A stretch of DNA of 60,451 nucleotides, filler included, from Jimgerdemannia flammicorona (Eukaryota): assembly GCA_003990765.1 (NCBI GenBank). It is 3 parts of 3 records of this genome, joined end to end, with 100 filler letters (N's around TTAATTAATTAA, not from the genome) between each part and the next. Parts side by side here need not be neighbours in the genome. Positions count along the whole stretch, not along the records: positions 40,371 to 60,451 come from RBNJ01001767.1; 2 more parts are not named here. One strand, written 5' to 3'. Shown one piece after another: positions 20,296 through 59,647 of the stretch. The position numbers and the translations under genes were made by a program. Each line of letters starts with the position of its first letter. Position 1 is the stretch's first letter. The notes below the pieces were generated by a model, which had not been told where the DNA came from, made no database searches, and saw nothing but the letters and a program-made list of their open reading frames with translations.

Positions 20296-20338
<43 letters not shown>
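20187..20338 (+). mobile_element. 3' end of a poly(A) non-LTR retroelement inserted in the 5' LTR of Gypsy B copy 1
   Basis: G-rich tract, AATAAA and a ~40-nt A tail, followed directly by LTR U5 sequence matching 26586-26642. Confidence 0.7.
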
Positions 20339-20341
<3 letters not shown>

Positions 20342-31900: not shown

Positions 31901-34900
31901 TTCATAGGATCTCTAGGACTATTTGAATGTATTTGAGGTGTTCCTCTTTAGTTGTACTAAAGATCAGGATGTTGTCAAGATATACCAATAGAAAAATAAA
32001 TAGTTGGTCCTTGAATATCTCATTCATCAGAGTCTAGAATGTGGCAGGTGTATTAGTGAGACTAAATACTAAGACCAGGAATTCATAGAGTCCAAAGAAG
32101 GTCATGAATACAGTCTTGGGGATATCTTCTGGCTTGATTCAGATCTGATAGTATTCTGACATGAGGTCTAACTTAGTGAAGTACTTGGTATTCTTAAGAG
32201 TATCAAAGATTTGATCAATCAAGAGTAGCAGATAGTGGTTCTTAACAGTAAGCTTGTTGAGTACATAATAGTCTATGCATATTCACAGGGTACTATCCTT
32301 TTTCTTGATGAATAAGACTGATAAGCCATAAGGAGATTTGCTTGGCTAAATAGCTTCTCATGTAAGTAGTTTTTCTAGTTCCTTCTTGACTGCTTCAATT
32401 TCAAGTAGTAATATACAGTATATGTATTTCTTGAGTGGTATAGTTCCTGGGATCAGTTCAATTTCATAATCAACTTCTCATATAGGTAGTAGATCAGGTA
32501 GCTTGTCTGGAAAGATATCCTTGAATTCTTCTAGCAGTAACTTGATACTTTTATTGACTAATAGTCTCTTGTCTTATTTCTTGAGGCAGACCATTATAAT
32601 AAAGATATATATTGTCTTCTTGAGCACTCTCTTATACTATATGACTGATAGTATTATAATCTGGGTCTTGCTCATGGTCTTGTCTGTCTTGATAGTGATG
32701 TTGGCTCTATCTTAAAGTAAGGTGACTTTATTCTTATATCAATTGATGTCTGGGTTGTGTTTTATAAGCCAGGGTTTTCCTAGGATCAGATTATGATCTC
32801 CTAGTGATACAATCTCAAAGTCTACTCATTCTCAATATTTCTAGATCTTAATGAGTAGTTTAGCAGCAATTGACTTAATGGGGTACAGTATACTATCTAT
32901 AGTGACTATACTGTTATTTTGGATATAAGCTTAGTGAGGATCTTGAGGCTTTCAATGAGATTCTGATTGATGAAGTTTCCTATAGCTCTACTGTCTATGA
33001 GTATTTGAACATCTTTTCCTTTGACTAGGTCTTTGAAAATAAGCATAGCTTAAGTTTGATTTTTAGTAAGACTTGCTACTTGATCAGTACTACCAAAATC
33101 TTTTTGATCTCATTTGGTTTTGAAAGTTCTTAGACTTCTGTAATCTTGAGTTGACTGGCTTTTTTTAGGATTATTTGTGCAACTTAGTCTCCTTCCTTGA
33201 CTGTATAGTTTTGATTCTTCTAGTTGATAAGCAGAACTTAAACTTGTCCTTGAAAGTCTGAGTTAATAATACTAGCATCTACATCTAAATAATGTTTGAT
33301 ACTGAGTTCTGATTATAGTGCAATTCTGGCATAATGTCCTTCAGGATATTGAACTGCAATTCCAGTAGGCACCAGAGTTTGGCCCTTAGCTGAAATAGTG
33401 ACTTATTTGACAGAGTGTAGGTTAAGACCAATAGCTCCTTCTGTTTGATATTGAGAGACCTGGGCCTTCAGGTGAAGCTTCTTGATCTTGAGCTTGGATT
33501 GACTAGTAGTAGGGTTGACAGATATATCTTTGGACAATATGGTAACTGGTCTAGAAGGTTTGCTAGTCTTCTTAGGATATTTAATTATAATATGTCCTAT
33601 TTGGTAACAGAAGAAACAGGCTCTAGATTTCTTCAGACAGTTCTTTTCTTCAGAGGTAAGCTTAGTGTTCTTTTTATTTATAGTATCTAAGTCTATTGGT
33701 ACTGGGCCAACTGTCCTTGGTTGGTTTCTGTAGTGGTTCTTGAAGTAGTTCTTCTTGCAGTATTCTGGTTTAAAGCAGTTATCAAAGATGATAATATCAA
33801 ACCTATCAGTGATCCTCATAGCTTCATTAAGACTTTGTGGCTCTTCTAGCTCAATCTTGACTTGTATGTTTCCTTTCAGATCTCAGATATAGCAGTCTAT
33901 CTTTTTATTCTCTATTATTACTGATAGTTCAAGTAGAATTGATAGGAATTGTATATTATAGTTTTATATAGACTTGAGTTACTTGATATTTACTAGCTTA
34001 TCTCTGACTAGCTTAGTAGTATTAGCAGGCTTGAACTGCCTATGAAAAGCTCTCTTGAAAGCTTCTCAATCCTTGATTTATATATATAAGTATATAAATA
34101 TAGTCATAATATGATTGTGCTACCAAATGGCTGCATTCTCTCAGAGAAGTGTGGCAGCAAATTAGACTTGCATATCTTCTTCCATTCTTGTGAGCTCAAA
34201 GTATTAGTCTAATTGGAAGATTCATATATCTGTAGATAGTCCTTCTTAGTGACTATCAAAGACATCTGGCTTGAGTGGCTTAAAACTAACTAGTACTATA
34301 GCAGAATATGATGTACTTATAGTTCTTGTTTTCTGCTGTTCTAGTTATACTTGAAGTACTTGGATTTGGTAAGCCATAATAACAATCATATTCTCTATAT
34401 TGGCTTGTGGTTCTCCTGCTTCTCCAGAGAGGTCTGGCTAGTAGGTTGACTCTTCATAGCTCATTTTAGGTTCATGTGACTAGTTGTGACTGATTTTTGA
34501 ATTTGTATGAGGTTTCTTAATAAGATAAGATATAATGATACTACTGCTACTAAGTATAATAGTTCTAGTTTTTTTAAGAGGAAGCAGCTTAATCTAGAAG
34601 TTCTAATTGATCTAAAGTAGCTTGAAGAGATACTTAAAGATTCAAGTATTCTCAAAGAATTTCTGAGAGAAAATATTCTGAGCTTTATTTAGATAAAGAG
34701 TAAGGATATTTATATATGGTCTGAAAGAAAGATCCAGAAGGATCTTGGAAAGAAAGAGAAATACCAAGAAATAGGTTCTTGATAAAGATGATTAATATGG
34801 TTCTACAATGTTCCAAAAAGGTCTTTAACTAGCTAAGATAAGATGCTTGGCACCAAGAAAGATAAGAGTATTCTAGTAGTATCTAGATGCTGAGAGAAGA

Positions 34901-35017
34901 TTTCTAAGTAAGTAAAAGATAGTAGAACATAACAGAATATTCAAGAAATGATAAAAAAAGACTAACTAAAAGATACAAAAATGTACTAAGACTAAATATA
35001 ACTGTGAAATTATTACA
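28910..35017 (-). mobile_element. Chromovirus-type Ty3/Gypsy (family D), full length but degenerate
   Basis: LTRs 28910-29373 and 34555-35017; minus-strand PPT AAGAAGAGAGAAA next to 29373; gag knuckle CFFCYQIGH, protease LIDS(R)A, RT YLDNILI, RNase H and integrase in one frame, chromodomain EYEAEKIL...EYLVKWMGYP at ~29700-29855. No clear TSD. Confidence 0.92.
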
Positions 35018-36183: not shown

Positions 36184-37758
36184 ATGAGAAAAATCTTATT
36201 GGATACTTAAAAAAACATCATTGCTCTGCTAAACTCAGGCATGATGATACATTAAATTGCCAAACAGACTGGTGTTAGCAAGACAACTATAATCTGTATT
36301 AAAAAGGAGCATTGCTCTACTATGTCATTGAAAGGAGATCATCCAAAAATATTCTCAGATTGTGACAAATTATAGATTGTTCACCAGGTAACTGGTGGTA
36401 ATGCCAATATAGCCCTTGAGGTTGCAAAACTACTCTAAGAAGATGGCCAAGCAAAAGCCAGTACTCAAATAGTACATTATACTCTGAAGGAAGCTGGTTT
36501 GAAGACTACTATAAAATAAAAGAAACTCCTACTTTTCTACTAGTACATAAAAGCTCAATATGAATTCATATACAAGTATAAAGAGGAGCTCCTTTCTCTG
36601 CTACCTTACTGGTCACAAGGTTTGGTAGGCGACCTTCCGAGTCCCCTTTCCCCTAATATTACCCCTTCTATCTCGGGTTAGTTTGCTGTGCCTGCAGGGG
36701 CATGGTGGAAGGAGGGCAATGGTGATGAGTTGCCCCTTTATCGGTATCGGATTGGTGCTTCCTCTACTTTTTTGCGGATTCTGGTGCCTTCAGCTGCATC
36801 TGGGGTATACCCATTTTGGTGCAGCGCCTTCTTCCTTTTGCTGTCATCAACAAGGAGTTGTCTCGGTATGTCTCAGGCTACATAGGGAGTCGGCCGACCT
36901 TGGGCGTCAAGTGCTCAGTATAGGTTATCTGCAGGTTCTCAGTGCCTGTAGTGGGGCCCTCTGGCTTTGGTGAGCTTCCCGGCAAGCATGGTTCTGGCGT
37001 AGGTGACTGCTTTTCAGGTGTTGTCGGGATGGGAGGGGAGATGGCCATCACAGATAGGCAGAAGAGTGATTACAGTGAACCAGTAGAGTGCCAGGCTGGG
37101 GGCAGTCATTGGGGCTGGAGCAGGTGCTGCTTCGGTGGGGCCTTTTGATTGGTGCAGTGCAGTTAGGTAGTAGGTGTCACTATCGGCTTCTTTTGGTGAT
37201 CAGTTGGGTTGGGCCCCAGTTGTCAGGGGGGGGTCAGGAGGCCCGAGGCTACCTATTTCAGGCATCTTGGCTGCACTTAACTGGAACTGGGAGCTGACAT
37301 GGCAATGTGATCAAGGCCCACAGGCTTGAGTAGTGGGGTATTGGGGGTTTCCTCTCACCTCACGTGTAAGTTCTTTACTCACCTCAACTGAGAGAACCAG
37401 GCCCTACCCACCGTGTTGTGCTTTGATGAGGGTTTTTTCTTTGTCTGTCATTCTCTTTGGGGTGGCAGGGGCTATTCTATTCAGCTCAGGCATGGCCTTG
37501 TACATATGTTGGGTTCTCGGGCATGTGCTTTCGGTCGTTGGTATATGGTTGGGTTTCCCCTGGTGGTAGAGAGAGCATGGTGCGCAGAATGAGGTGCAGG
37601 CTTATTAGCCCTACTGTGCCTGGCATGGTCGAGCTACTGGACAATAGCTAGCCTAGGTTAATGGGGGGGCAGTGCTTGGTGGGTGGTGGGGGAGGGTTTT
37701 GGCCTATATAGTCTAGGTTCCCTTCCAATAAAAATCCATGGGACATGAGTCTGTTAAA

Positions 37759-37804
<46 letters not shown>

Positions 37805-40270: not shown

Positions 40271-40370
40271 NNNNNNNNNNNNNNNNNNNNNNNNNNNNNN
40301 NNNNNNNNNNNNNNTTAATTAATTAANNNNNNNNNNNNNNNNNNNNNNNNNNNNNNNNNNNNNNNNNNNN
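40271..40370. other. Artificial contig spacer
   Basis: N44-TTAATTAATTAA-N44. Confidence 0.98.
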
Positions 40371-43300
40371 CTCCCCCAGCCAATGTCCCGGCATCTGCAC
40401 AAATCCCCCAGCTTGCCCTACATTGTAACACTCCTCACAATCAAAATGGCCACCATCCACCAGATGCCCAGTGCGAAAATTCAGCATGACATTCCTCCGC
40501 AGCATTCGCCACCACACCACCCAGTACTTGGGAGGAAGCCATCTCTGCACCTCAGCACTCCAAGACCAGATACCCGCCCAGTCCCACTCCTCACCGATCC
40601 CTGCCCCCTGCCAGCCACTTGGTCTAAGGTCCTGGCCAAGACCCTGCTGACACTCCACCTCATCTCCAAGATTAAATGTTTCAATTGGAGCACCCCCCAG
40701 CAGCAGTCCATCCCATCGCCACATATCAGGCCCCCACACTCCCTCCCCCTCATTGCCTTGCCAGCGCAGACCAATCCGGTGGGTGCCATCCACCACCCCC
40801 CACCAAAAGCCCTTGAACCGCAGCCTCCTACTTCCATTCAGCCCTACCAGAGCGAGCAGATCTCTGGAGGACCCTCGAGGGGAGGTCCTCATCTCCCACA
40901 CCTTCTGCAGCAGCGGCACCCAACTCCCACCCTGTAGTTCAGCAGCTCTTTTCAACCACCAGGCATGTAAGCAGTACAACTTCTTAGGGAAATCTATAAG
41001 GCCAAGACCCCCCCTGACCACTGGTGTTGCAAGAGTATCCCAATCAATCTGGGACCTCCTCCCTGCCCAAATCCAATCTCTTGCTATCTTCGTCAGCCTC
41101 TTCACCACCCAAGCTGGGAAGTCCAGGTGATAGGCCATGTACCACAGCTTGGGGAACCAGTACACATTCAGAATTGACACCCTCCCTGCCAGAGAGATAT
41201 GGTGGCCTCCCCAGCTGTGAAGGGCCTCCCCCCAAATGGTCACCCTGCTCTCCCACCACCCCCATGGCAAGACAGAACCATATACTGAAAGGAAGATGCC
41301 CAGGTATCTCACCACCTCACCCGTGGGGACAATTGTTCCAATGACATCCCCACCCACTAGCCCATTTCCAAGCACCATTGTCTCACACTTATGCCAGTTG
41401 AGCTTCACCCCTGAGTATGCCTCATACCATTCCACTGTCTCCTTAAGAGCCTCGACATCTGCCACAGACCCAAGTCTGACCACCATATCATCAGCAAAGG
41501 CCCCCACCTTCCACACCAGACCATATATAGAGAGCCCTGCCACCTTCTGGCGAATTCTGTCCATCAGTGGCTCTAACAAAAGGGCATAGAGAATAGGGGA
41601 CAGAGGGTCCCCCTGAGGAACTCCTCTATCTAAGGGGAATGCCAGACCTCAGTGACCATTACACATCAGCGCCACTTGACTACTCTCCAGCAGACTCAAC
41701 ATAGAAGTCTGAAATCCTGGTGGAACACCAATTCGGTCCAACATCTTGCCCAGCCAAACCCGTCATACTTGGTCATAGGCCTTCTCCTGGTCCAAAAAGA
41801 CCAACCTTCCATCCAGACCACAAGTCCGGGCCCCTTCAATCACACCATGCACCCATGCAGTCCCATCTCTTATAAGCCTATCTCCAACAAAGCCTCGCTG
41901 CTCCTCCCCCAGCACCTGTTGGACAACTTTCTGCAGTCTTGCAATGATCACCTTAGTCACCATCTTCCTGTCCATATCCAGTAGCATGATTGGTCTCCAA
42001 TTCTTCCAATCTTCCCTCCTCCCCTTGTCTTTGTACAATAAGGCCACCAGTCCGAGGTCCTGCTCTCCAACCCACTCACCACTCTGAAGGACATGGTCAC
42101 AGAGAGCAGCCATCTCACCCAAAATGCCCGGGACCTTCACCATCTTCTTCCAGAAGTCCCATGGCAACCCATCCTCCCCTGGTGCCATTCCAAGCTTAGT
42201 GGCTGCAAGGACACTCTGGATCTCCTCTCCTTGCACCAGTAAGATCAAGTCACCCAGTCCGTCTACTTGCAGCAGTCCCCACTCTTCTAGTGTATCTGCT
42301 ATCACCCCCCCCTCAGCACCCCCTTCTCCCTTGCTCCACAAACCCTGCCATCTCTCCTTCAATACCCCTAAGATTTGTTGTGTGCCATGCACCATGTTGC
42401 CCTCAGCATCTAGGATCCCCTCCCACCTATGTCGCACCCTCCTAGCCTGAAGGAGTCTTGATAGGTACCTAGTAGGCCTCTCACCCTCCTCAAGCCCCTG
42501 CCACCATAGCCTAGCAGCCATACCACGCATATGAGTCTCCTCCTCATCTCTCAGTACCTGCTTCAGCTCCAATATCTCCAACTTAACCCACTCTATCCTC
42601 CAATCCTCCACCCCATCAGAAGCAAGTAGATCTGTCCAATCCATTTGTAGTCTTCTCAGCCTGCCAGAAGCACACCTTGTGCACTCCTTCCTCCACCTCC
42701 CAGCAGCCTTACCAGCTCCCCCCCAATAGACCCTTGCAGCCTCTTTCAGTCTCATCCAATGGACCCCCACCGACAAACCCTCCTGCCTCCAAATAAGAAC
42801 CTTTGCCTGAACATCCTCCACCCATGAGTCCCACAACCCCTTCTTAGCCAGCAGGGAGGAGTTAAGGCACCAATGTCCGGGTCCATCTCCACTCCCCCCA
42901 AACTGCCCCTGCCCCAACAGTCCCTAGTGATCAGACCATGGGCACCACTCCACCCCCAGCATCTTCCAAACATCCAACCCCCAACACTCGGCCATCAGAA
43001 TCCAGTCAATTCTCGTATCTAAGCCATTCACCCAATGTGTGTAGACCCTGGAGTCGCCCCACCTGGATCTGCCCATATCCCCTAGGGAACTCAACTTCTC
43101 CACCTCCTCCCATGCATCCAGACCCCCACTTCTCTCCCCTGCACTCCTCCCTCCATCAGTTCTGTCTAGACGCTGATCCCAAACCATGTTAAAGTCTCCA
43201 CTGAGAACATCAACTCCTTCCTCCAACAGAATACCCTCCTCCAATAGTTCCTCAATCCACACAATCCTCTCTCCCCTAACTGCAGGACAGTAGCAAGAGC

Positions 43301-43607
43301 CAACCCTCACCAGCTCCCACCCCGGCTGCAGCCAATCACCCCAGACCAAATGATCACCCCAGTTCTTGATTCCCTCCAAGTCTCCTCTACCCTTCCTCAC
43401 CAGAATCGCCACTTTTCCAAACCAAGCAGTAGCCCCTCCCCATTCCCTAGTCCACTCCACATGATCACCCTCATCCTCACACCGAACATCCTGTAGTAAA
43501 AAGAGATCAGCCTCCAATCTCTTGAGCCAAGTAAAAATGCTTTTTCGCCTCCCAGATCCCTGCAACCCATTCACATTCAACGATAAAATGTTAGTTGTAC
43601 TGTTCAT
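40371..43607 (-). pseudogene. LINE ORF2: AP endonuclease plus reverse transcriptase
   Basis: ILSLNVNGL, GDFN, RIDW, SDH; KNWRPIMLL, LDQEKAYD, GVPQGDPLSP, AFADD. One frame with a few nonsense codons. Confidence 0.93.
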
Positions 43608-45700
43608 AAGGAATAATGTTGAAAGAGTGATCCCACCATCTACAAGTCCACATTCTGCTCCTCCTGTACCAAGTCCGAGTCATGCTCAGCAGCCAGTTCC
43701 CTTTCCCCAGCATCCTGTACCTCCAGCCCTTTCAGAAGTTCTACCATTGCCCCATCTTCTTTCTCCTCAAAGTCCTCATGATACTCCATGCAAGCCTCCC
43801 ACCAGAACTGCAGACCACGATGCTCAGCCCAACAGTAGGCTGCCCACTCACCCGCAACCACTACCAGCTCTGCCTTCCTTGCCTCATCAACCTCATACCC
43901 CTCCTCCTCCAAGAGGATTGCCAGAATCTCCACCCCCAGCACCTCCATCACCCCATCGCCACGCAGAATACTGCTCAGTGCTCCTCAGGCATTACCTGCA
44001 GGTCCACATCCCCCAATGCCTCAGCTGCAAGGTTATCCATCACCTTGCTCATCCACAGCAAGTTCCCCACCTCCTTCCCTCCCGGAGTCCCCGGCTGCCC
44101 TGCATCCAACATCGTGGTGTCAGCACCTACACTGGCAGCCTCATCCCATGTCTCCTCAGGGACGTCCACCAGCTCATCCTCTCCAACCGCCACCACCTGG
44201 CCCCCTTTCGCCACATCTGGGACACCAAAGGTAACATGCTGGGCCCCCTGCATCTGTATATCCTCCACCACCACTCTCCGCCCCACTGGGCCCCTCCTGA
44301 CTAGAGGGGGGAGAGTGCTATCAGACTCCTCCTCCCAAACTTCAAAAGTACCATCGGCATAGGGATCTCTGCCCAGCACCTTCGCAGCCCATTCCTCTGT
44401 CACCACTGCCTCCTTCCCTCCTTCACCAGCCCATACACTGGCTTTGACGCCTCCAGACTCCTCAGCCCCATCCACCTTCCTCTTCTCCCCTCCTGTCATA
44501 CTTGTCAAGAGCTCCCTCTGCCTCTTGCGGCCCTGGGCCCTCTCCCACTGCTTCTTATCAGTGCGCACATGCTTTCCATTCACAATCTCCAGATGCGTCG
44601 ACTCCTCAAATAGCTTCCAGGCTTTTGTCCTCCTCTCCACAGCCCCACCCAACTCCTCCAGCGCCTCCAACAAGTCCTCCTCCTCTTCTTCACTCCCCTT
44701 CACCCTCGACACCTTACAGACGAATGCCCCCCACATCAGTACCGAGGGCCAGTCACTCATCTTCCCTGTGGCCTCCTTCCCTGCCAGCCAGATCCTGACA
44801 TCGACATTGCCCGTCCTGATTGTAGTCTCCTCCCACACCTGAAATCCAATGTCCACCACATCACCCTACTCCACCATCACCTCCTCCACCCTCTTCCTAG
44901 TCTCCTCCTTAGACACTGTGGGCACCCCCCTCACCAGAAGCTGCACTACCCTGGGGTCCCACCTCAAGCACCGCACCATGGGTACCACTACCTCTCCAAC
45001 CACAACTCCAGTCTTCAGGGCCTCATCCAGTGGGCCCACTTCCTCAAAACCCACCCCCTCATGCCCTTCAAGAACTTCACTGAGGCAGCCCCCACCACTT
45101 GCTTTGAAATCAGCCCCAGAACCATCCTCGCCATCACCACCAAGCCCCGGAAGCACAATGTGACCGTGAACTCCGAAATCGACTTCTTGAGCAATGGGGC
45201 CACCACCAGCCCCATTACACCATCCGCCAGGTCCCCCTCCCGCATCGGGAACCCCTGACCCCCCTGGCCATCAGCCGTCACATCTCTTTTTTTTTCACGA
45301 TTCACTGTCACACCCCCATCAGCAGTCCCACCCCCAGCCACAGCTCCTCCAGACCCTACACTCATACCTCCAACCTGAGGACCACCCCCCCTCTCAAGGC
45401 TCGCCTTGCCCTTCCCCACAGCAGCACCAGCCCTGTCTCCAGCTCTGTCTCCAACTGGCCATCCACTCTCCTTCACCTTGTCAGCAAAGCTGGTGGGACC
45501 AGTCCTTCCCCTGTTACCACCCAATACTGGTCCTCCTCCAGAGCCCTCTCCACCTTTCAACCCTCCAAAGGCCCCCATCCCCAGGCCAAAACCCCTCCCC
45601 ACCTCCTGCCAGCCGAAAGCCCCAGCTCCCCCTGACCCAGTACACCCGTCGGAACTCTTGCTTGAAGACATATTGATAGTACCTTCTCTCCTAGTAGTAT
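40371..45700 (-). mobile_element. LINE (L1/Tx1-like), ORF1 plus APE-RT ORF2; 3' end cut by contig edge
   Basis: ORF2 motifs as listed in the next feature; G-rich ORF1 fragments 43640-45671 with stops and frameshifts. 5' boundary approximate. Confidence 0.9.
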
Positions 45701-47329
45701 CGAAAACTGTTGCTTGAAGTCTTGTGTAATGGGAATTGTACCGGAGAAAGGTATTGGTAATGATATCATCTCTGATAGAGTAGTTATCTAGAAAGAGTGA
45801 TTCTTGGATTACATCTCTCTGTTCATTTACATATGTAATAATATGTTGAAACTATATTACTATTCTACAAAATAGTATTATCTTTCTTATATTCTAGATA
45901 TAGTATTAGTGAGCAGAGAAGAGGTATATTGTCTTTGCTTTTATCAGATTCACTGTTAGTATATCTTTAGTAGTTTATGGTATTATATATTATAGAGTTG
46001 TAGTATACTGTCAGCTATTGTTTTTTTTTGCTTATACTTAGGAGGTAGAGTTATTAGTTCTATCTTAAGAGTTGTAGAGTATATTCTCCAGTCTCTTCAT
46101 TATAGTTGAAGAAGTAGGTATAAATGTGGATTAATACTTATACCAGTGGTCATTATTCCAATAGATCTCATATACAGTTATAAACTATTATAAGTTCATT
46201 GGTAAGGTTGGTATAGTGATCAGAGTTGACAGAGTTAACAGAGATTCTTGACTAGAGATCATATCAGTGTCTCAGAGATTGTTGTCTTCTACTTTATTAT
46301 TATCAAACTAAATTATATTATAGATATCCTTTATGATATATTCAACTTAAGATATTTGTAGGATATAATCATCTGGGTGTAGGAAGGATCTGTTTGTAAT
46401 TTGGACATATTTAATATATTTGTGATTAAGTTCTTATACTATGTCATTGATTTGACTATAGGTCAGGGTAACAACCATTTCAGTAGTAGTAACTCAGAGA
46501 TAGGAAATAAAGATACTATACTTATAAAAGAGTTCATAGTATTTGTGGGTAATGAGTTTCTGATATTAAGACATTTTAGTAATATCTATATCATAGTTAT
46601 AATTAATTATATCTTCTAGAAGATGGCTGATCTGATAGTAGTTTGATATTTGTCTGATTCAGTGAACCTCACTAAGTATGTTTAGAGTATTTTATCAGAC
46701 TTCTACAAAATAGAGAGATACATACTAGACTATTGGATATTTATAAGAAGTAGGGGTGCTGTGGCTTAGTTGATAATAATATTTCAAATTTTAGTATTGA
46801 TATAGTTGTAGACTTCAGTAGTTATAGCTGAGTTTATATTTGAGAGTTATAGTTGTTATTTGTTATGGTTCTCTATTTTGATATACTGTATATTTGATAT
46901 ATATGTTTTCAGTCCTAATTGGTAAAATTCTATTTTTGTAAATCTTATGTTCTGTGACTTTGGTTTGACTCAACTTTGTAATCTGACAGATGATTTCTGA
47001 ATTTATTCTAAGGGTGATATGTGATTTCAGTGGCTTAGAGATTATATACTTATAATCAAAGCTTGTACAGAGTCAATCAAAAGGCTATAAGAAAAACTTC
47101 ATATACTTTTGCCTAAGAATAATCAATCTGCCTCTAGTTCACCTTTATCTGTTATAACTATTACAACTGAAATTATTATAGATTATATATCTCTATCTCT
47201 AAATAGAACATTTTCTTACAGATTAAGTATGAGAAAAAGGAGTATTATCTAAGAAATATTCTACAATATATTGTAGATACTTAGTTAGCTAATCTAATCA
47301 TTATAGATAGTTCTTAGCTAGTTTACAAT

Positions 47330-47909: not shown

Positions 47910-50900
47910 TGTGATGGTCAATCTGAATTAGTAACATGAATCAGGAGAATTAGACATTTGATTGTAGTACCTGAATTTGATTCCCAAATATAGCTTAGCC
48001 TTACCAATAGTAGTCATATTTCGCCAAGAGCAGAAACTTTAACATTGGCAAAGTTTTGGGAGATGGCAAAATCTTTACAGATGTTAAAAGATTTAATACT
48101 GGTCATACTTAGCTACTTTATAGCTAGTAATCTTATATAAATAACCCAGTATCTTAGAGTGAATTAACCTCAGATCAAAATAGTTTAAAGCAAAGAGAAA
48201 GCAAAGGAACTAGTAAGCCTGTGGGCAGATATACTTTGAACTTACCTATCCCTGCATTCCAAGGACTCTGCAGAGTCAAAGAAGATCAAGTTTTCAAGAT
48301 ACAGAAATCCAATATACTTCCAAGATTAAGTGTCTACTATGTTACAACTTGGTGTCCATTGACTGGTGATTCAAGATGAATCCCTCACTTTCAAGGAGAA
48401 TAACAAATAACTGCCACCACTCAAACAACCATACAAACTGAGTTAAGATATCTAGACAAGATAGATATGAGACCACCAGTATTCTATGAATATATCTCAG
48501 ATAAATCAATCATTACCTTCATTGATGATTTTGAGCAGTATGCCACTGTAAGGACCCTGACAGCAGTACAGCAAGTAGCCCTCATTTTCTTCAGCCTATG
48601 AGGTCTTACCAGAGCAGCATTCACAGCCACAACTTATACAGAAAATGATGCTGATGTCATACTGATAGCACAGAAGACCTGGCTCCAAAACACCTATTAT
48701 ACAGATAAGATCAAGCAAGCTCTGAAGGACCAGCTCAATACAATATACCAAGGAATGAGTAAGGACTCAAATACATTCTATACCAGAATACAATATCAGA
48801 TAATTCTTGCAGATTATGCTAATGCTATCTAAGATTAAGTAGCTGAAGCAACCTTCATAAAAGGAGTCCACCCAGAGATAGCTATGGTCATTTACATATT
48901 ACCAGTAGTTCTGGATCTACCACAAAAGGTCACCTATGCTCAGCAATATTGGATAGCCAGACACTCACAAGACCACACAATGGAAAGAGTCACTAGAGTT
49001 AGAATTGAAGTACCCAAGGCAACTAGTATGACCCCAACCACAATGATCAATTGAAACACACCTCAGCCAAGAGCTACAGAGCAGCAGAGAAACAGCAACC
49101 CTATGGAGGAGCTTGCCAAACAGTTCACTGAAATGACTGCCCACCTAGGAGATATAGTAAAGATAATCAGAAGAAGAGACTGCTGTCTAGTTCAGAAGTT
49201 TGCTGCCACTACAGACAAGAAGAAAGGTATCTGCTACAGCTGCAGAGAGGAAGGCCACTACTCTTATGAATATATGAGTGAAACCAAGTGCAAGGCCCAG
49301 CCAAGCAATACTACTAGAAATAAAGAATAGGCCAACATCATCATATTCGAGGAAATTAGAAAATCAGATGAAGAATGGGAGACCTATCCTACACAGACTA
49401 CCAAAAAGAATATTCATAAGGAATCTTACAAGAGGCCACCAGGAAGACCTAAGAAGAATCTGGTAGAAAAACAAATAGAGACAGCCACAGAATGCCAAGC
49501 TGAAGAAATAGATCTAGATATGGAGCTTGAGTAGGCAGTTCAGGACATCATTCAAGGAACCACTCCAGCCAGTGAAGGAGAAAAGGAGAAGAAGCTCTGC
49601 AAGATCAAGACCTTTAAGTATGATATCTTTAAAGACCTCAGCCAACAAAAGGTCAATGCAACCTTTGGTCAGCTCACAGAAATTTCCACCTTCAGACAGC
49701 AAATGAGATTTGGACTAGTAGAAATAACCAAGGAGCAAGGTTGGAAGATAACTGAGGCCAACAATGTTCAAGAAGACTCTGGAGAAGAAAGTGAAGACAA
49801 CCACAAGACTTCTGCCTATGCAACCTGCCAAATCAAAGACAGAATCTTTGAGGCCATCATTGATACTAGAGCAGGAGGATGTCTCCTTAGCAAAAAAGCA
49901 GCAGACTGTCTAGGTTGGGAAGTTGAAGAAGCAACCAAGTTGGTGTTTGTCACAGCTAATGGTACAAGAGCCACACCTCTGGGAAAAATTTGAGATATTC
50001 CCATTAAGTTGGGAGGAGCAACCATCCCAGTAGATATAATTGTAACCAATATAACCAACTATGAGATCCTCATCAGAAATCAATGGCTTCACAAAGCCAG
50101 AGCAATAATCGACCTCAATACACAAAAGATGCAGATCATCTACTGAGGACAGAAGATATAAATTCCCATTAATGTCAATAAAGAAGTCCTGCCCAATATG
50201 GAGGAAGAAGAGAGTGAACAAGAGGAAGCTTATATGGTAACTACTCAGAAAAAGAAGGTTGGATGGATGAGTGAAGAAGAATGGTACAAGAAGATCATAG
50301 AAGAATATGCACCACAAGGAGTCAGCTCCCATGGGATCAAGATGTACTATATGGAGCATGTCAATGATTGCTACCAGTGTACTAGCAGAATCAGGAATAT
50401 CTACCATAACCATGAAAGAAGACAGAAGGCTCTTGAGGAACAGGCCAAAGAAGAGGAGAAAGAAGATGATGAACCACCAGCCCTCCTGGAGAACAGTGAT
50501 GATGAAGAAGAAATCAAGATCAAGATCCAGAAGATTCACCCCAATGCAGTTCTACCAGAATACAAGTCAGAAAATACAGCTGGAATAGACATTGCCACTA
50601 TAGAAGAAACTGTACTGGAGCCCTAGACAACTACTCTACTTACAACTGGTCTAGAGATAACCATACCAAAGAACTATGTCAGAATCCTCAAGACAAGAAG
50701 CAGTCTGGCTAAAAGTGAAATTACCATTGAAGGAGGAGTCATCAACTTAAACTATACTAGAGAAATACTACTTATTGCTAGGAATCACAACTCTACTATT
50801 CCATTCCCAATTAAGAAGAAGGACCAACTGGCACAAATGTTAATCTTCCCAGTCCTACAACCAAAGATCATAGAGGTCAAGAAGTTGGAGGAAACAGAAA

Positions 50901-53900
50901 GAGGAAGGAAAGGATTTAGATCTACTGGAAGAGGAGTATTTACCAGTACCAAGATCACCAAACTGGACCACAAGAAGGAGGAAACTATAAACAAGCATAG
51001 CTATACTATTGGAAATGAGTTTTCACTCAAAAAGGAACTCAAGAAGATACTCTATAAATTTGAGGATGTCTTTGCCACAGACTTCAAGGATATCAGAAGA
51101 AAGACTCTACACTACTACCATGATATAGACACAGGAGACACCAAACCAATTTATCAGAAGGCAAGACTCATTCTGCCAGCCTACCATGAATGGCTTAGGG
51201 AAGAAATCAAGCAGATAGAAGAAGCTAGTATTATCAAAGAGGCCAGCAGTTCTTGGGCTTCACTAGTTATACTAATCCTGAAGAAAGGAAGCAAGTCAGG
51301 AGAATTTGCCCCAAGACTCTGCACCAATTATAGGAAACTCAACCTAGTCACTAAAAAAGATTACCAACCACTGCCCCTTATCAGTGATATCCTTGTAACC
51401 CTAGGAGATAAAGCACAGTATTACAGCACCTTGGACTTATACTCAGGATTTTATCAAATCAGTCTCACAGAAGCAGCAAGTGAAAAGTCAGCCTTCATCA
51501 CCCCAGATGGAACCTATGTCTATCTGTGAATGCTATTCGGAATGTGTAATACACCAGTAAGCTTCTAGTGAATGATGAACAAAATCTTCTGCTATGATAT
51601 GGGAAGATGGATAATGGTTTATGTAGATGATATAATTATCTACAGCAAGACAGCCAAAGAACATCTGTGACACATCCAGCAGATAATAGAGAAGTTGAGG
51701 AAGCATGGTCTTTACATCAAGCCCAAGAAATACAAGTTCACAGAAATTGAGATCTCCTACCTTAGTCATATCATCAACCAAAATAGAACATATATAGATG
51801 CTCTTAAGATATAAGCAGTAGCAGTATATCCAAGACCCACTATTGTTACTGAAGCCCAAGTCTTCATGGGACTCACCTCCTACTACTGAAGATTTATTAG
51901 AGGATTCTCTAATATTGCAGGTCCAATCTATGAACTCAACAAGAAAGATACTAAGTTTCAATAGACTGGCAGACAGCAACAAGCATTTGACAAGCTCAAG
52001 GTCAGACTGACCCAAGCACCCATCCTTAGAAGACCTGATTGGACTCAAGAATTCATTCTGCAGATAGATGCAAGTACATGAGGACTAGGAGCCATCCTGG
52101 TCTAAAAGAAAGACAAAGTAGAGTATGTCATCACATACCTAAGTCAAGGAATCCAAGGAGCTGAAAAAGAATATAAATCATACAAGTTGGAGTGCCTTGC
52201 AGTCATCTGGGCTGTAGAAAAGTTCCACTACTATCTGGCTGGAAGGCACTTCACTATTCAGATAGACCACTCAGGCCTCATCTGGCTACTGACCACTAGA
52301 CAACCCAAAGGAATCTATGTCAGATAGATCATAAAGTTGCAAGCCTATGACATAACTATTGTGTACTGCCCAGGAAGAACCATTGCCAATGCAGATGTCC
52401 TCTCATAAATACTCCAAAGGACTCTCAACCAATAAACCAATAATAAATAAGAAGTTCTACTACAGAATCATCACATACCTGGGACAGTGAAAGATGCCCC
52501 AACATCTGGAAGAATAGACACAAACAATTATCAATAGAACATAGAAACAATTCGAAATCAATAGAGAAACACTGAAGAAAGGAAAACTACTAGTCATATC
52601 AGAATACAAGAAGAAGCAAGCAATGAAATCAGTACATGAACTCAGCCATCTAGGAGGAACCAACATATATGATAAAGCAAGAAGAACAATATAGTAGTCA
52701 GTAATAGAGGAGGATATCAGACAATTTGTCAGGACCTACAATAAATACCAGAAATAGAAACAAGATCAATATAATCAGACCCCAGGATCAGTACACATAG
52801 AACCAGTACCCTTCACCCACATAGTAATAGATATAATTGGCCCACTACCTCTGACCTTGACCAGCAACTGATATATCATTGTCATTGTAGACCTTTTTAT
52901 GAAATAGATAGAGGCAGGACCCCTCAAAAAAGCCAATGCACAGTCAATTGCTGATTTCTTCCACAAAGAAATCATCTGCCAATTCAAGACTTCAACACAA
53001 GTGACCACAGATAGAGGAACAGAATTTGTGAACCAGTTCCTTAAGATTCTCTACAAAAAGTATAAGATCCAGTATATTTGGACCATAGCATATCATCTCT
53101 AAGAAAATGGACAAGCAGAAAGGACAAACAAGACCCTTAAAAATGTTATTGTCAAAATCTGTAATAACTACAAAAATTGTAATCACTATCTGTCAATAGT
53201 ATTATTGGCTCTCCAGGATATCTGACTAAGAAATGCTGTTCAGAGAAGAAAGTTCTCAAGAAATCCTATTGTCTAATAGAGATGTTATATGGAAATGAGT
53301 GAACACAGAGATATGGAAACTATACTAAATCAGGAAGAAGGCTGAAGATTACATAAATGAGGTGCAGACACTACAGTAGAATAATGTAGAAAAGATTCAC
53401 AAGCCCCTGGAGATTATCAAGATAGGAGACAAAGTCCTGGTGTATTGGAATATAGTAGAAGCTTTATGGTCACAAAAACTAAAGCCTAAGTGGGAAGGAC
53501 CTTACCTTGTACAAGATATAAAAGAGACCACCTTTTGGCTACAAAAACTCTCAGATACAATCATTCCCACTACCATCTACTGAAACTAACTCAAGAAGTA
53601 CCATGAACAGTAAACAAAGTAATGTAGCTGCTCTCAGGATCACAAGTGCTGCCCAATGAGCCATAGAAAGACAATAGTGTTCTACTGAGCCACCCACAAT
53701 AGAGAAATCCTTTGACAGCATCCAGAGTATAGTCCAGACCCACTTGTTATGAATTTCACATTTCAAGACATACCAGAACTGAACTGAGTTTCCGGAATAC
53801 TTCAGGCTAGGACAGCTACTGAATTCAAAGCCAAAGATGGGAAAAGAAGACTGGATTAAGAAATGTCAACTCTCCTATACTCAGATTACAATCACTAAGA

Positions 53901-54506
53901 GAGTGCACAAGTTATTCAAAGATGATGAGCCAGCTCTAGTGCATTTTCAAGAAGTAACCCCAACTGACTTTAGATATATCAAGAGACAACATTGGAAGAA
54001 TATCATGGCACAAATCGTACAGTACAAGGAGATACAAATCATGGAAGCCTGGAAGTTTGAGTGAATAGGATACTTTAGAGATAAATCACCTATTCAGAAG
54101 GAAGTTGTAATGGTTAATCTGAATTAGTAACATGAATCAGAGGAATTAGACATTTGATCACAGTACCTAAATCCAATTTCCAAATATAGCTTAGCCTTAC
54201 CAATAGCAGTCATATTTCACCAAGGGCAGAAACTTTAACATTGGCAAAGTTTTGGGAGATGGTGAAATCTTCACAGATGTTAAAAGATTCAACACTGGCA
54301 GAAAATGACTCATTACTTAGCCACTTTATAGTTAGTAAACTTGTATAAATAACCCAGTATCTTAGAGTAAATAAATCTCAGATTGAAATAGTTCAAAGTA
54401 AAGAAAAAGCAAAGAAACTAGTAAGCCTGTGGGCAGATACACTTTGAACTCACTCAAGATACAGAAATCCAATGTACTTCCAAGGTTAAGCATCTGCTAC
54501 ATTATA
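47910..54506 (+). mobile_element. Ty3/Gypsy family B copy 2, complete with both LTRs and 4-bp TSD
   Basis: LTRs 47910-48346 and 54106-54506; TSD ATAG at 47906-09 and 54507-10; PBS-like TGGTGTCCATTG at 48350; dUTPase ~50512-50930; RT YVDD near 51620; colinear with copy 1. Confidence 0.96.
53603..54064 (+). pseudogene. Accessory ORF3 of family B (154 codons, frame intact, internal stops)
   Basis: ATG 53603 overlaps the integrase end and is in frame with ORF 53837..54064; internal stops are TGA/TAG of the CGA/TGG-decay type. Confidence 0.75.
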
Positions 54507-54529
54507 ATAGATAAGTATTTTCATATCAA

Positions 54530-54995
54530 TGTGGTGAATTTGTATAATCTTCAAAATTTGAAACACCTACTAACTTTACTTTTGACTAGTTCCTTATACT
54601 GATCTTGATTGCTATAAACCAACTGATGAGCTCCTTAAGCAAGAGCAAAACCAGTTATTTCACAAATGTTGAGATTTAATAAATATTGAATTTTGATAAT
54701 TGTTGATATCAAGGATCCATATTTATAAAAAGTAACTTACAGGAAATATAGTCATAACTTAGCTACTTTATAGTTTACAAAATTGTATAAATATCCCCAA
54801 TATCTAGAGTAAATAAATCTCAAATCAAAATAGTTCAAAATAAAGAAAAAGTAAGAGAACTAGTAAGCCTGCAGGCAGATACACTTTTAACTCACACCTC
54901 TGTACCCTGAGGACTCTGTAAGAATCAGAACAAGATCAAGTTTCAAGATACAGAAATCTGCCATACTTCTGAGATTAGGAATTTGCTACATTATA
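54530..54995 (+). repeat. Solo LTR related to family B (same R/U5, different U3)
   Basis: 54755-54995 aligns with the 3' half of the family B LTR (TATAAAT, AATAAA, TAGTAAGCCTG, CAAGATACAGAAATC); left boundary tentative. Confidence 0.7.
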
Positions 54996-55407
54996 CTAAA
55001 TATCACTATTATTTTTAAAGCTCTCACTACTATATTTAAAACTCTTTATTTAGTTTATATATTAGCTAATTATATTCAAAACTAAGTAATAAGTAAAATA
55101 TATAAATGAGCTATCTAAGCTACTATTTTTTAACCAAAAAATAAATTATATCTGATGTTCAAACTTATATCAAATTTCTTTAAAAATATCAATAATACAA
55201 TTAATAAGGTTTTATTTTATTAAATAATAATATTATTAAAATAGATAATAATTATAAAAAATATAAAAAAAAAAAACTAATTATAATCAAAATATTTATC
55301 TCAGCTATATATATCTAAATTTAAGCTATTATCTCCTTAGCTGTTATCTCTCTATTACTATTCTGATCACTATTAGTCTGATAACTATTATTATTAGCCT
55401 AGCTACT

Positions 55408-55718
55408 TAGTATTCTCAAATGAATCAAATTGAGAGTCATAAGAGATTTTTCAATTTGAATAAATTTCAAATTGAATTAAATTCAATCAAATCAAGAGTC
55501 TGATTCAAACTCTATTTTTAGAAATATAATAACTTAATAAAAACATATCCAAATTTAATAACCTTTAGCTTATTAGATTTGTCTTATATAGGAGAATCTA
55601 ATAAACTAAATACTGTTAAATTTTAATATATATTAATTAGTTATTATATTTCAAAAAATAGTTTTTATATCAAATTCCAAATTAAATTAACATTTGATTT
55701 AATTTATTAAAAGCAATA
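55408..55718. mobile_element. Putative hAT-derived MITE
   Basis: Starts TAGTATTCTC, like TAGTGCTCCC at 59648, and shares AATTGAAT/ATTCAA subterminal repeats and an internal block with 59650-59900; imperfect 8-bp flanks. Confidence 0.45.
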
Positions 55719-55729
55719 TAGCTTATACT

Positions 55730-56830
55730 TATTACAGAGTAGTAGAAGAGAGGTAATAGTGATGAGTTGTCTCTTTATTAATATCAGATTAATACTTTCT
55801 CACTTTTTTATAGTTTCTGATATCTCTGGCTATATCTGAGATATATCTATTTTAGTATAGCACCTTCTTTCTTTTGCTATTATTAATAAGATATCATTAT
55901 AGTATATTATTGACTATATAAAAAGTTGGTCAACCTTGGGTGTTAAGTGTTAGTATAAATTACTTTCAGGTTTTTAGTATCTATAATGGAGTCTTCTGAG
56001 CTTTAGCAAGCTTTCCAGTAAGTATAGTTCTGATGTAGATAATTGTTTTTGAGAGTAGAGTTAGATTGAAAGAAAAAATGACTATTACTAATAAGAGAAA
56101 GAATAATAATAGTAAACTAGTTGGGTGCTAGACTAGAGATAGTTATTAGGGTCGAGATGAGTATTATCTCAGTGAGACCTTTTAATTGGCTGACAGAGAG
56201 TAGAGTGATACAGTAGCTAGTATTCTTATTATACTCAACTAGAACTAAGAGTAGACATGACAATGTAATCAAGGCCTGCAGGCTTAGAGAGTAAGATCTT
56301 TCTTATCTAGATAGTATCTGACTAGAACTGAGAGCTGATATAATAATATAATTGAGGCCTATAGACTCAGAGAGTAGATTGGAGTCTTTTTAGGCCTTAG
56401 CTCATATATTAGTCCTTTTGAAGAGATCTTACTATAAGTTCTTTATAAATCTATTTTACTTCTTATTGGTTAGTTAGAGAGTTTTTCTTTTATCTCTGAC
56501 TTTTATTTGAGGTCAGAGAGATTATATTATTCAGTCTTAGTATTACTAGATCTGATATATAAGTATGCTCTTATGGTCCTGGTCTAATGATCCAGCTCTA
56601 GTAAATAGATAAGTTTAGTATATATAGTAGAAGTTAATATATCTGATATGTATAGCTGAGATAATAGAACTACAAGTTCTCTCTATAGCCTAAGAACAAT
56701 AGAAGAATAGTACTTGAGAAGAGATGGAAGAGTTTTAGTCTATATAGTCTAGGTTTCCTTCTAATAAAAATTTGCAGAGACTTGATCTTATTAAATAAAA
56801 TAAAAAAATAAAAAAAAAAATAAAAAAAAT
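55730..56830 (+). mobile_element. Hypermutated copy of the poly(A) retroelement at 36586-37799
   Basis: Colinear from GTGATGAGTTG to AATAAAAAT with an A-rich tail at ~56795-56830. Confidence 0.85.
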
Positions 56831-57102
56831 AGCTATTTAGTTAATTATTACTTTAAAGTAAAAAGATCATCTCTATATAAGTTATTTCAATTATAGATAA
56901 TATATATAGTAAAACTTATCTCATTTTTCTCAAGATCTATTAATATTTAAATCTATATTTCTCTAAAAAGAGACTATATAATAACTCTTATTAATAGAGA
57001 GATATTCTTCTTTGGAGTTAGGGGGAATATCATATTTCTCTTACTGAGTGGGTGTCAATTCTAAATATCTATTAAATACTGAAGCTCTAATATCTAATAT
57101 AT

Positions 57103-59303
57103 TGTTGCGTTAGTTATGTATAATGAACTTTGACTACACAGCTCAATGTGCCACTTGGTGAAGTGTGCAATGTATAACTAAAGGCATTTGGTGATGTTCG
57201 CGGGTTGATGGTCATGTGATAGGTCGTTTGATTCATGCGATAATAGCGGGAAAACAGAGGTTGATGGCTCACTCATCTGTCTTGACTTGTTAGGTTGAAA
57301 GGTTCCTGGCAGTGCTGGCTTTCCTAAGCTAAGTATTCTTGGGTTCCTTGGTTTTCCGGGTCTTGAATCTCGAATGCATGGTCCGAATGGCAGTCCGAAT
57401 GGCGGTCTGGTCTTGAATCCTTGGCTGGGTCTTGGGTCTCGAATGGCAGTCTGAATGGCAGTCCAAATGGTGGTCTGGTCTTGAATCCTTGGCTGGGTCT
57501 CGGGTCTCGAATGGCGGTGGTTGGGTAATGTTCTCTTTCCATGGCAAGAGAAAATTCTTTAACTCAAACTTCCGAGCGATCCATTGCTCTAGGTTGTTAT
57601 CTTGTTCTCAGAATTTATCCGGTCTCTTGGAGGCAGTGAGGTTTCTTGGTAATCCTTTTTACTTTTAAACACAAACTGGCTGAGATTTATTCACTCTAAG
57701 AATATGGGTTATTTATACAAGTTTGCTAGCTATGGGAGAGGGGGCACGACTAAGGCTAAGGTATACTACATTGTGGCGAACTTATGCTATTGGTTTGCAT
57801 GATGTGAGGTGTAGGCTATTGTTTACTATGGATTGGGTTGTAGGGGATAGCAATGCTAGATTCGGACTTGCTGACAAAACGCTGAAAATGGCGGCACTGG
57901 ATAGCAATGCTGAAAACGGTTGTGCTGGGTAGCAACGCTGAATTCGGATGAGCTGACATGATACAATGATTGTTGCCAGAAACAGTTGTGGAGGGTGGCA
58001 ACGCTGAATTCGGATCTGCTGACAAAATGCTGAAAATAGTGGTACTGGGTAGCAACACTGGAAACGGACTTGTTGACAAAAGCTGGGTTCTCATGGCTGA
58101 TGGGCGGTACTCTAGAGAAAATAGTACCCTTCGTCCGTGGCAGGCAAATCTTGCTGGGTTGTGATTTCTTCTTCATCATATCTCTCCTCAAAGAGGGGAA
58201 GCGCCGGCCAAGAGATGAGAGGGTAGAAAGTGGCCAGTCATCTTCAACAACATTCTCCAACCCTTGAACAGCTTGAATGCGGACAGAGGACTGGTAGACT
58301 CTCTGTTGCTCCTCTTCTTCTTCTAAAGGCTCGTCAGTTTCAGTGTCAGAGGGGGTTTCTTCAGGGGCAGGATCTTGAAGTTCTTGGGCCTCCTCTTCAA
58401 AGACAGGAACTTCTTGGGCTTCTTCTTGATTCAGTTCCCAAATGATGAGGTGTGAATTGTGGCTGACAGGGTGGTGGGTGGTTGGGGTAGCTCCAACAGA
58501 TATCTCTATAGTAATGGGCAGTCCTTCAAATATCTCCATAAGACTCATTAGGTGACCTTGATGGTTGTCTCGGAGTGGGGTGGTGTGGAAACCTGGCTGA
58601 GTAGGTTCAGTTTGTTGGCTTCCTATGGTGATGCAGTTGCTGCCAATAGCGTTGACCACTTCAGATTCTATTCAGTCAGCATCTTCAGTTGAAAGGCAGG
58701 AGAGGCTGCCAGCTGTTACTCCTTGCAAGTATGCTATAGTCTAGGGAATATGGTGGAAGATTTGATAGATACGGAGGGCTCTCTTGATTAGCCAGCTGGT
58801 GGTTAACATTTTGGCAATGAGGTCTTCCTGGTCACCTTCTTGAGTCTCATTGCGAAGGCAGTGTCCGATTTCATAGTCATGCCAGAGGGTCATTCGTTCG
58901 GTAGTGTCTTTGAGCTGTTGGGTCATTATATACCGGTAGTTGATGAAGTGTCCAAGGTCCTCAGTGTAGAAGTTCAAGTGTTCGGAAGTATCTGGGCGCC
59001 AGATGGCCTTCTTGATAGCTTCAAAGATCAGGGTCTTTGGGCCAGGCAAAGGGGTAGAGCGGCGGGAGGTCTGGTTGGATCAGCAAATGAGAGGCATTGT
59101 GTGGTAGGTCTTGGTTCTTTGGTGCCGATCCCTGAGGTGGAGTATGGTTTCTTAAATAACGTGGTCTTCATTTTGGCTCGGATTATCTTGCCTTCTTTTG
59201 GGATGGTCACCTAATAGGTCAGGCTGTCTATTTGATTGTCATGCCATTATATCATCTGATCTTAGCAGTCACCAGTACTCTGTTTTCAATTGCGTACGTC
59301 ATA
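57103..59303 (-). mobile_element. Solo LTR of Gypsy family A (2201 bp) carrying the accessory ORF
   Basis: End-to-end homology with 2009-4247; ATAT on both flanks (57099-57102, 59304-59307); no pol sequence recognisable adjacent. Confidence 0.87.
57856..59097 (-). pseudogene. LTR-encoded accessory ORF, copy 2
   Basis: ORFs 58741..59049 and 57856..58659 are in one frame and closely match 2215-3027 up to DDWP; this copy reads on into the U3 repeats. Confidence 0.75.
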
Positions 59304-59647
59304 ATATATATTATCTGGATTTTTCTATATAAGTAGTAAAGAGATTATTGAAGATAACTAAGAATTAGATTTGGATAGAAAGAAGCAGTTAGATTGGTTA
59401 GAAGGTTTTGGTGACTCTAGTTGACAAAGAAGACATTAGTCTAGTAGACTTCCTGAAAGACTGTATTGTCTTTAGGCTTAGAACTATTGAGCTATATAGA
59501 GATAGATGAGTATCTTTAATACAGAGAGTCTAGAAGATATAGTTTTCTTCTAGAGAGTCCTTTGGTGATTTTCTATCTATAGTTAGTCTGAAGGGTAGTA
59601 GGTGTCAATAGTTTAAGAAGTTCTAGTAAGGGGTAATAGATAGTACT

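Follow-up and report, generated by a model that had tools for sequence, protein, structure and literature searches.

Do two families of Ty3/Gypsy retrotransposons in the fungus Jimgerdemannia flammicorona carry the same extra gene at different places, and what might its product do for the element? The question is raised by a 60,451-nucleotide (nt) stretch of DNA from assembly GCA_003990765.1 (hereafter the window), which consists of three parts joined with filler N, positions 40,371–60,451 coming from RBNJ01001767.1. In this window, one element family (family B) contains a short accessory open reading frame (ORF), ORF3, at the end of its integrase (IN) gene, and a second (family A) contains an ORF inside its long terminal repeat (LTR). 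Here, our comparisons point with high confidence to homology between the two ORFs, and the accessory ORF is very probably a real, conserved protein-coding gene that follows gag and pol as the third ORF of the element and is placed differently in the two families.

The layout of the elements was derived from a self-comparison of the window and from a reading of the boundaries of LTRs and polypurine tracts (PPTs), as collected in Table 1. Family B is a Ty3/Gypsy element with two copies in the window, which are 82% identical over 6.2 kb and bear LTRs of about 0.44 kb; the Pfam domains along it follow the order zf-CCHC, aspartyl protease, dUTPase, RVT_1, and Integrase_H2C2, with rve found in family A. 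Family A is represented by two LTRs, one closing the 3′ end of an element that is cut off by the start of the window and the other lying inverted, with an upstream flank unrelated to the internal sequence of family A copy 1. Since the homology between the two LTRs starts exactly at the junction of the PPT with TGTGACG and the flanks differ, the family A repeat truly begins there. The families resemble one another in their RNase H/IN segments, which are 40–50% identical, in their LTR termini (TGTGACG and TGTGATG, that is, TGTGAYG), and in a core promoter/R segment common to both LTRs. The accessory ORF lies downstream of IN in elements whose pol follows the Gypsy order and whose LTR pairs and PPTs are defined, which is the location of an accessory ORF of a Ty3/Gypsy element.

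Four copies of the ORF are present in the window, two in family A (A1 and A2) and two in family B (B1 and B2). The conserved motif quoted in a first-pass annotation of this DNA was found where it had been placed, reading RALRVHQIFHHIPWAIAHLQGVTAG in A1 and ITKRVHKLFKDDEPALVHFQEVTPT in B2; in B1, it reads IAKRVYKLFKDDKSALAHF followed by a stop codon (TGA) and GVTPG, with arginine at the stop position in the related protein P0007. The helix strings said to precede the motif, YEIGYHL and YFRLGQLL, are present too. A1 is 67% identical to the intact 325-amino-acid (aa) protein P0001, and A2 is 77% identical to it over residues 1–295, while B2 is 62–71% identical to proteins P0005–P0010, in which the frame is open. 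At the stop positions of B2, these relatives carry R, W, or Q, a pattern that fits decay through C-to-T or G-to-A changes. About 85% of the copy-to-copy differences are transitions, with 120 transitions and 25 transversions in the family A ORF and 70 and 16, respectively, in ORF3.

The homology proposed earlier between the family A and family B ORFs is borne out by profile comparison. Pairwise BLASTP gave an E-value of 2e-4 for B2 against an A1 fragment and 0.008 for another A–B pair, and hhalign of the A and B profiles gave 8e-6 over 79 ungapped columns, or 4.3e-6 after the window's own B copy was left out. With nine A-type sequences (A together with a more distant group, A′) set against seven B-type sequences, the profile–profile match, on whose significance the proposal had been made to depend, reached an E-value of 1.5e-6, a probability of 90%, and a score of 45.0. 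By comparison, 200 column shuffles of the B profile gave a mean score of 12.9 (sd 2.6) and a maximum of 22.3, so none of the 200 attained 45, and the reversed control scored 16.1. An identical set of 79 ungapped columns (A 72–150, B 63–141) was recovered in every hhalign run. When seven family proteins were searched by tblastn against the six frames of the 60-kb window, the four ORF copies were the only matches, and the sole cross-family matches at E<0.05 were those of B-type proteins on the A ORF (P0010, 8.5e-5; P0006, 0.003; P0005, 0.037). MAFFT further aligned both families over approximately 150 N-terminal columns, through F(E/D)(A/S)I(K/Q), then HF, and then the core, in which the A and B ORFs are about 20–25% identical.

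Substitution patterns argue for a protein-coding gene. Differences between A1 and A2 fall at codon positions 1, 2, and 3 in the numbers 44, 23, and 78 (p 1.2e-7), and those between B1 and B2 in the numbers 25, 16, and 45 (p 4.6e-4), so that in both families the third position exceeds the first and the first exceeds the second. The dUTPase–reverse transcriptase (RT) part of pol, used as a control, shows the same pattern (43/26/98), and non-coding LTR controls are without it (13/15/20, p 0.44; 9/10/17, p 0.21). The significance of the codon-position pattern implies that the families diverged with the ORF under protein-level constraint. Open frames were also found in the relatives, including P0001 (325 aa), P0013 (342 aa), P0005 (139 aa), and the ORF of the metagenome contig L001 (291 aa), and together with the codon-position pattern they mark the accessory ORF as a conserved coding sequence of these elements.

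These relatives came from several searches. A word-indexed protein search returned three A-type proteins among 77 candidates, including the intact P0001, annotated as a hypothetical protein, and five B-type proteins among 5 candidates, which are at most 139 aa long and have no stops across the sites broken in the window; fused or longer forms of the A ORF were absent from all 546 candidates examined for them. With a combined profile, HMMER found only 10 matches at E <= 1e-3 among 1.84 billion representative proteins, of which 8 are of the A, A′, or B type and the other two, P0016 and P0017, match the acidic part only. The A′ group consists, among these matches, of P0012–P0014 (214–342 aa), and is linked to A with an hhalign probability of 99.8%. 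A scan of metagenomes with the query A5 yielded L001 (1535 nt), with its intact A′-type ORF, as the sole locus, whereas none of the 586 pattern matches obtained there with P0001 was confirmed; likewise, 0 were confirmed among the 37, 73, and 69 pattern matches of IMG/VR scans with the queries A1, A5, and A8, and the best score in the ESM Atlas with P0013 was 0.88, which is under the useful range. Thus, three subgroups can be listed: A (window copies and P0001–P0003), A′ (P0012–P0014 and L001), and B (window copies and P0005–P0010).

Two observations concern the metagenomic material itself. In L001, a 28-nt direct repeat, 86% identical, lies on either side of the intact ORF (170–197 and 1481–1508); an LTR feature and a binding site are possible readings of it. 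One run of DNA reads, X1, which bears the label soil metagenome, contains 6% of the sequence words; at 85% likeness to positions 50000–59400, it gave 1314 short contig pieces that are 85–99% like both families, differ from the window by transitions in approximately 90% of cases, and have low depth over 53768–54081. Because these pieces cover all 30 bins of the interval, related copies of both families occur in X1.

Where, then, does the gene sit? We are confident, if slightly less so than of the homology, that the two families differ in where the gene lies with respect to the PPT and the LTR. In family B, the start codon of ORF3 precedes the IN stop codon, in another frame, by 11 nt in copy 2 (ATG at 53603) or 20 nt in copy 1, and the PPT follows the gene. 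In family A copy 1, the IN stop codon (at about 1672–1674) is followed by a 322-nt spacer, the PPT, and the start of the LTR, and the ORF begins 206 nt into that LTR; past its stop codon come 84-nt tandem repeats and then the TATA core. Because the gene comes after both the PPT and the LTR terminus in family A, it belongs in its entirety to U3 and is duplicated in every LTR. An ORF lying completely within the interval from the LTR 5′ terminus to the TATA box (2009; 2215–3141; 3518) was seen in family A only, where the second LTR has the same layout, and not in family B. L001 resembles family A in that approximately 340 nt separate a short conserved pre-PPT motif from the ATG, on a single contig whose LTR limits are unreadable. 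The first-pass annotation had described the gene's position relative to the PPT as shifted. The difference in placement stands by our boundary reading, but a move of the PPT, as opposed to the gene, finds no support, as no DNA similarity polarizes the change: comparisons of the family A U3 start or IN–PPT spacer with the family B U3 or ORF3 region revealed none above shuffles, 52–276 of 300 shuffles reaching the observed score in four comparisons.

The U3 regions of family A also differ from each other in their repeats. In copy 1, about 3.4 tandem copies of the 84-nt unit, 87–89% identical, lie between the ORF stop codon and the TATA box (3197–3480), and in the second LTR a different repeat with a spacing of 148 nt takes their place (57837–58067). 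Both are possible enhancer or binding-site arrays.

At the protein level, A, A′, and B have in common an N-terminal core of approximately 150 residues that is soluble and predicted to be all-helical. In A and A′, the core is extended by a conserved NPxLxDNPDQWLQ...FEGPPI segment and by an acidic tail that contains aromatic and hydrophobic (W/F/L) residues, the tails having an isoelectric point (pI) of about 4.1 and 18–25% D+E; B-type proteins end directly after the core, and two of the four tested are basic, with a pI of 9.2. An AlphaFold model built from 16 sequences was likewise all-helical, with a predicted local distance difference test (pLDDT) of 65 and a predicted template modelling score (pTM) of 0.58, and was best over residues 100–160. 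The earlier description of a conserved small helical accessory protein is consistent with this model, as well as with the coding pattern and the open frames noted above.

Several known protein types were considered and rejected. An env-like ORF3 of the errantivirus or Athila type does not fit products of 153–342 aa in which the maximum 19-residue Kyte–Doolittle mean is 0.21–1.07 in all eight proteins, and with no value above 1.07 the previous statement that the protein is not env-like and lacks a transmembrane segment holds. Among envelope families, Glycoprotein_B gave E 0.15 in one of 16 members, far under the cut-off, and none was at threshold. HTH_Tnp_Mu_2 (PF09039) appeared in two of 16 members at 13.7–14.8 bits, against a gathering cut-off of 20.5, and outside the core. 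A Pol domain or chromodomain was matched by 0 of 16 members, ORF3 is in a different frame from integrase in family B, and the family A ORF is 540 nt and a PPT away from it. A match to a known Pol domain had been named as an outcome that would overturn the proposal, and none of the 16 members has any Pfam match at gathering score. A profile search of PDB sequences gave a best E-value of 0.49.

Taking these results together, we find it reasonably probable that the ORF is a clade-wide accessory gene whose product would be a trans-acting regulator. In this explanation, the protein would be made from a subgenomic message in both families. The family B message might be spliced or reinitiated; a CTRAC...AG string 10 nt upstream of the ORF3 ATG could be a branch point with its acceptor, and the same stretch is also integrase coding sequence. 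The family A message may run from a TATA-like internal promoter approximately 60 nt before the ATG to the LTR's own poly(A) signal. A TATA-like box is also present in the second family A LTR (59150–59159, minus strand), and in L001, TATAAAAG precedes the ORF ATG by about 80 nt. The protein would then work in trans, as a transactivator or anti-silencing factor, to control how the element itself is expressed. The putative effector would be the acidic tail found in A and A′, with the helical core serving for targeting. The regulatory function, taken by itself, is a tentative assignment made from sequence features, and we hold it to be doubtful. Still further, the family A LTR might constitute a self-contained cassette, with a TATA-like promoter, a 300-aa ORF, enhancer-like repeats, and the element's TATA and poly(A) signal, so that every LTR, solo LTRs included, could express a Tas/Tax-like activator or a VANC-like anti-silencer. 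This we judge quite unlikely; if true, the product would act in trans on every LTR of the family and so close a positive-feedback circuit of a kind not known to have been described in fungal retrotransposons, and family B would be a compact version with the gene kept outside the LTR.

Several observations weigh against the regulator explanation. All four window copies are dead, interrupted by stops or frameshifts, and no RNA run was listed as containing the stretch. AT-rich DNA commonly contains TATA-like strings, and in the MAFFT alignment the A and L001 boxes fall out of register. Since the B-type protein is without the acidic tail, the function common to all members cannot be an activity based on the tail. 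The search for a DNA-binding or activator domain was negative, 0 of 16 members having a Pfam match at gathering score, and Foldseek and VIA-align searches with the helical model returned nothing over background for helical models. The confidence of that model is moderate at best, and the first AlphaFold model (P0001), with a pLDDT of 39, was unusable. In addition, the LTR limits of family A were drawn from two copies only, and A′ against B alone gave a weak match (hhalign E 0.0043, probability 8%), although in the same register.

Other explanations were weighed against the same evidence. A gene that is real and homologous might serve the replication cycle directly, as a cofactor in virus-like particle assembly or nucleic-acid chaperoning, in nuclear import, or in integration targeting that replaces a chromodomain. 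Neither integrase extends past its SH3-like C-terminal domain or has a chromodomain match, the gene abuts or overlaps integrase in family B, and the B-type protein, tailless and basic in half of the tested cases, suits such a role; we nevertheless consider it rather unlikely, as the Pfam scan of 16 members found no nucleic-acid-binding or chromatin-reader domain, and the PPT and LTR terminus that part the gene from pol in family A suit a separately expressed product. The families might also have captured the same host or foreign gene independently, one inside U3 and the other in the IN–PPT interval, in which case there were two captures and no boundary shift. The lack of DNA similarity between the two regions agrees with this, as does an ORF identity well under that of pol, but accessory genes usually outpace pol in evolution, both genes lie on the sense strand in the equivalent pol-to-TATA interval, and the search of 1.84 billion proteins revealed no free-standing cellular homolog, its 10 matches being the eight family members and the two that share only the acidic part. 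Independent capture is therefore improbable in our estimation.

The overlap of ORF3 with the IN end (11–20 nt) and an ORF3 frame that stays open for approximately 24 codons upstream of the ATG could further be read as a C-terminal Pol extension made in family B by programmed frameshifting. Against this, the ATG position is the same in B1 and B2, P0005, P0008, and P0010 start there, and the A/A′ homolog starts independently, at a conserved MPP/MPA, 540 nt after the integrase stop, with the PPT and stops in all frames in between, which leaves such an extension very improbable. Finally, pairwise BLASTP values of only 2e-4 to 0.008 and the stops in all four window copies might suggest that unrelated degenerate frames, not genes at all, resemble each other by chance. 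This is hardly credible given that no column shuffle reached the profile score, the coding substitution pattern is significant, the frames are open in relatives, and A′ bridges to A at 99.8% probability. Our preferred explanation hence remains that of a clade-wide accessory gene, with a regulatory product as its tentative component.

Table 1. Coordinates of the retrotransposon features and host genes along the window
Feature	Position	Strand	Detail
Family A element, internal part	1–2008	+	Truncated by window start
Family A integrase core and C-terminus	886–1674	+	rve E 4.9e-10; 322-nt spacer, then PPT
Family A PPT, GCAAGGGGCAGA	1997–2008	+	Upstream of ORF
Family A 3′ LTR	2009–3695	+	About 1.69 kb, begins TGTGACG; holds ORF, 84-nt tandem repeats 3197–3480, TATA/R core 3518–3557
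TATA-like sequence, TTATTTAAAG	2153–2162	+	62 nt upstream of family A ORF ATG; putative internal promoter
LTR-borne ORF, family A copy 1 (A1)	2215–3141	+	308 codons; internal stops 2311, 2395, 2416, 3025
Core promoter/R segment common to A and B LTRs	3504–3557	+	87% over 54 nt vs 54328–54381
Host gene, Gpr1/Fun34/YaaH family	6218–6955	+	E 2e-43
Weak Hus1-like match	10952–11584	-	E 3.7e-4, under cut-off
Host gene, Bmt2 25S rRNA methyltransferase	16374–17369	-	E 3e-46
Family B copy 1	about 20337–26642	+	5′ LTR obscured by N runs and poly(A) tract
Accessory ORF3, family B copy 1 (B1)	25675–26135	+	3 stops and a frameshift near 25811–25830
Family B copy 1 PPT, AGGAGGAAGA	26166–26175	+	
Family B copy 1 3′ LTR	26176–26642	+	
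Family B copy 2	47910–54506	+	LTRs 47910–48346 and 54106–54506
Family B copy 2 integrase C-terminal region	53332–53613	+	Stop 53611–53613
Accessory ORF3, family B copy 2 (B2)	53603–54064	+	153 codons, 4 in-frame stops: TGA, TAG, TGA, TGA
Family B copy 2 PPT, AGAAGGAAGT	54096–54105	+	31 nt past ORF3 stop (54062–54064)
Family B copy 2 3′ LTR	54106–54506	+	Begins TGTAATGG at 54106; TATA core at 54342
Second family A LTR	57536–59303	-	Solo or 5′ LTR
LTR-borne ORF, family A copy 2 (A2)	58172–59097	-	Stops 59082, 58743, 58674; frame change near 58228

Further observations were made on family B and on the rest of the window. Both family B copies encode a dUTPase between protease and RT in pol (22580–23242 and 50627–50930; PF00692, E 2.8e-20 and 3.3e-16), an arrangement known from some basidiomycete Gypsy elements, such as PosPlaTy3-5 (PMC2864245). 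At 20087–20400, most of the 5′ LTR of copy 1 is missing; two runs of 44 N and a stretch ending in AATAAA and an approximately 40-nt poly(A) occupy this place, the poly(A) stretch running straight into the approximately 60 nt that remain at the LTR end; the appearance is that of a retroposed insertion or an assembly gap. A further partial family B LTR, 77–86% identical to the others, lies approximately 250 nt past the 3′ LTR of copy 2 (54750–55003). Elsewhere, a non-LTR retrotransposon resembling a long interspersed nuclear element, with an Exo_endo_phos endonuclease and RVT_1, occupies 40323–45851 on the minus strand in a block of 52–54% GC with a GC skew of -0.31 to -0.49, and two runs of 44 N stand at its edge (40271–40370). 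Two 464-nt direct repeats (28910–29373 and 34555–35017), 88% identical and 5645 nt apart in a region of 29% GC, probably represent the LTR pair of a third element in advanced decay, and another repeat family joins 4456–4978, 36715–37792, and 55752–56829. The host genes in the window are fungal, and the nearest Atlas clusters of the Gpr1/Fun34/YaaH protein are from Ascomycota and Basidiomycota.

LTR retrotransposons seldom carry extra genes, most of which are unexplained, and in fungi, as far as one survey goes, such genes are noted only as an additional ORF of unknown function (PMC2864245). The conservation of one orphan family across three element lineages implies that the elements likely need it. 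The family B layout, with the gene before the PPT, and the family A layout, with the gene in U3 and thus in two copies per element and one per solo LTR, suggest that the LTR boundary moves easily relative to the gene. If the protein regulates transcription or silencing of the element, it would also offer a handle on element expansion in large fungal genomes. Because the family has no Pfam model, annotation pipelines keep naming its copies hypothetical protein, as one source did for P0001.

How does this gene compare with known systems? An additional ORF of unknown function was described for fungal Gypsy elements in 2010 (PMC2864245), and ORF3s have been reported in bdelloid rotifer elements (PMC5408684). 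Like the additional ORFs of Ty3/Gypsy elements, the present gene is a lineage-restricted, sense-strand extra ORF between pol and the LTR promoter that is without a known domain; unlike them, it can be followed as one gene across three subgroups, in one of which the LTR contains it entirely. Neither this protein family nor any LTR-borne ORF of a fungal element was described in the literature searched, which did not extend to subscription journals or Repbase, and a search for a fungal ORF3 yielded nothing specific. The accessory genes form a new family of orphans whose position in U3, seen in one lineage, is unusual, although the 2010 survey (PMC2864245) might list a member of the family.

A literature search for LTR-borne ORFs in retrotransposons brought up essentially nothing besides mouse mammary tumor virus (MMTV); an "LTR ORF" named in a Talaromyces paper turned out to denote pol ORFs. 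The MMTV product, Sag, is a type II membrane glycoprotein. Its gene, sag, is a complete "LTR ORF" in U3 that is present in both proviral LTRs (e.g., PMC2118998). Family A resembles it in having a complete coding ORF in U3, whereas the family A protein has no hydrophobic segment, and host and element class differ. The accessory protein gave no match at all in Pfam, among PDB sequences, or by fold, a direct comparison with Sag not being among those made. Retroviral transactivators include Tas (Bel1) of foamy viruses, which has an internal promoter, and Tax of human T-cell leukemia virus. If the regulatory assignment is right, the gene would resemble Tas and Tax as a 3′-end gene reaching U3, with a candidate promoter of its own and a product whose helical N-terminal part bears an acidic C-terminal tail; it differs from them in showing no homology and in the tailless B-type protein. 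VANC proteins are the anti-silencing proteins of plant VANDAL DNA transposons, and while the transposon class differs and homology is absent, the accessory protein is similarly a fast-evolving, element-encoded product, for which the tandem repeats in the LTR of A1 (3197–3480) could serve as targets.

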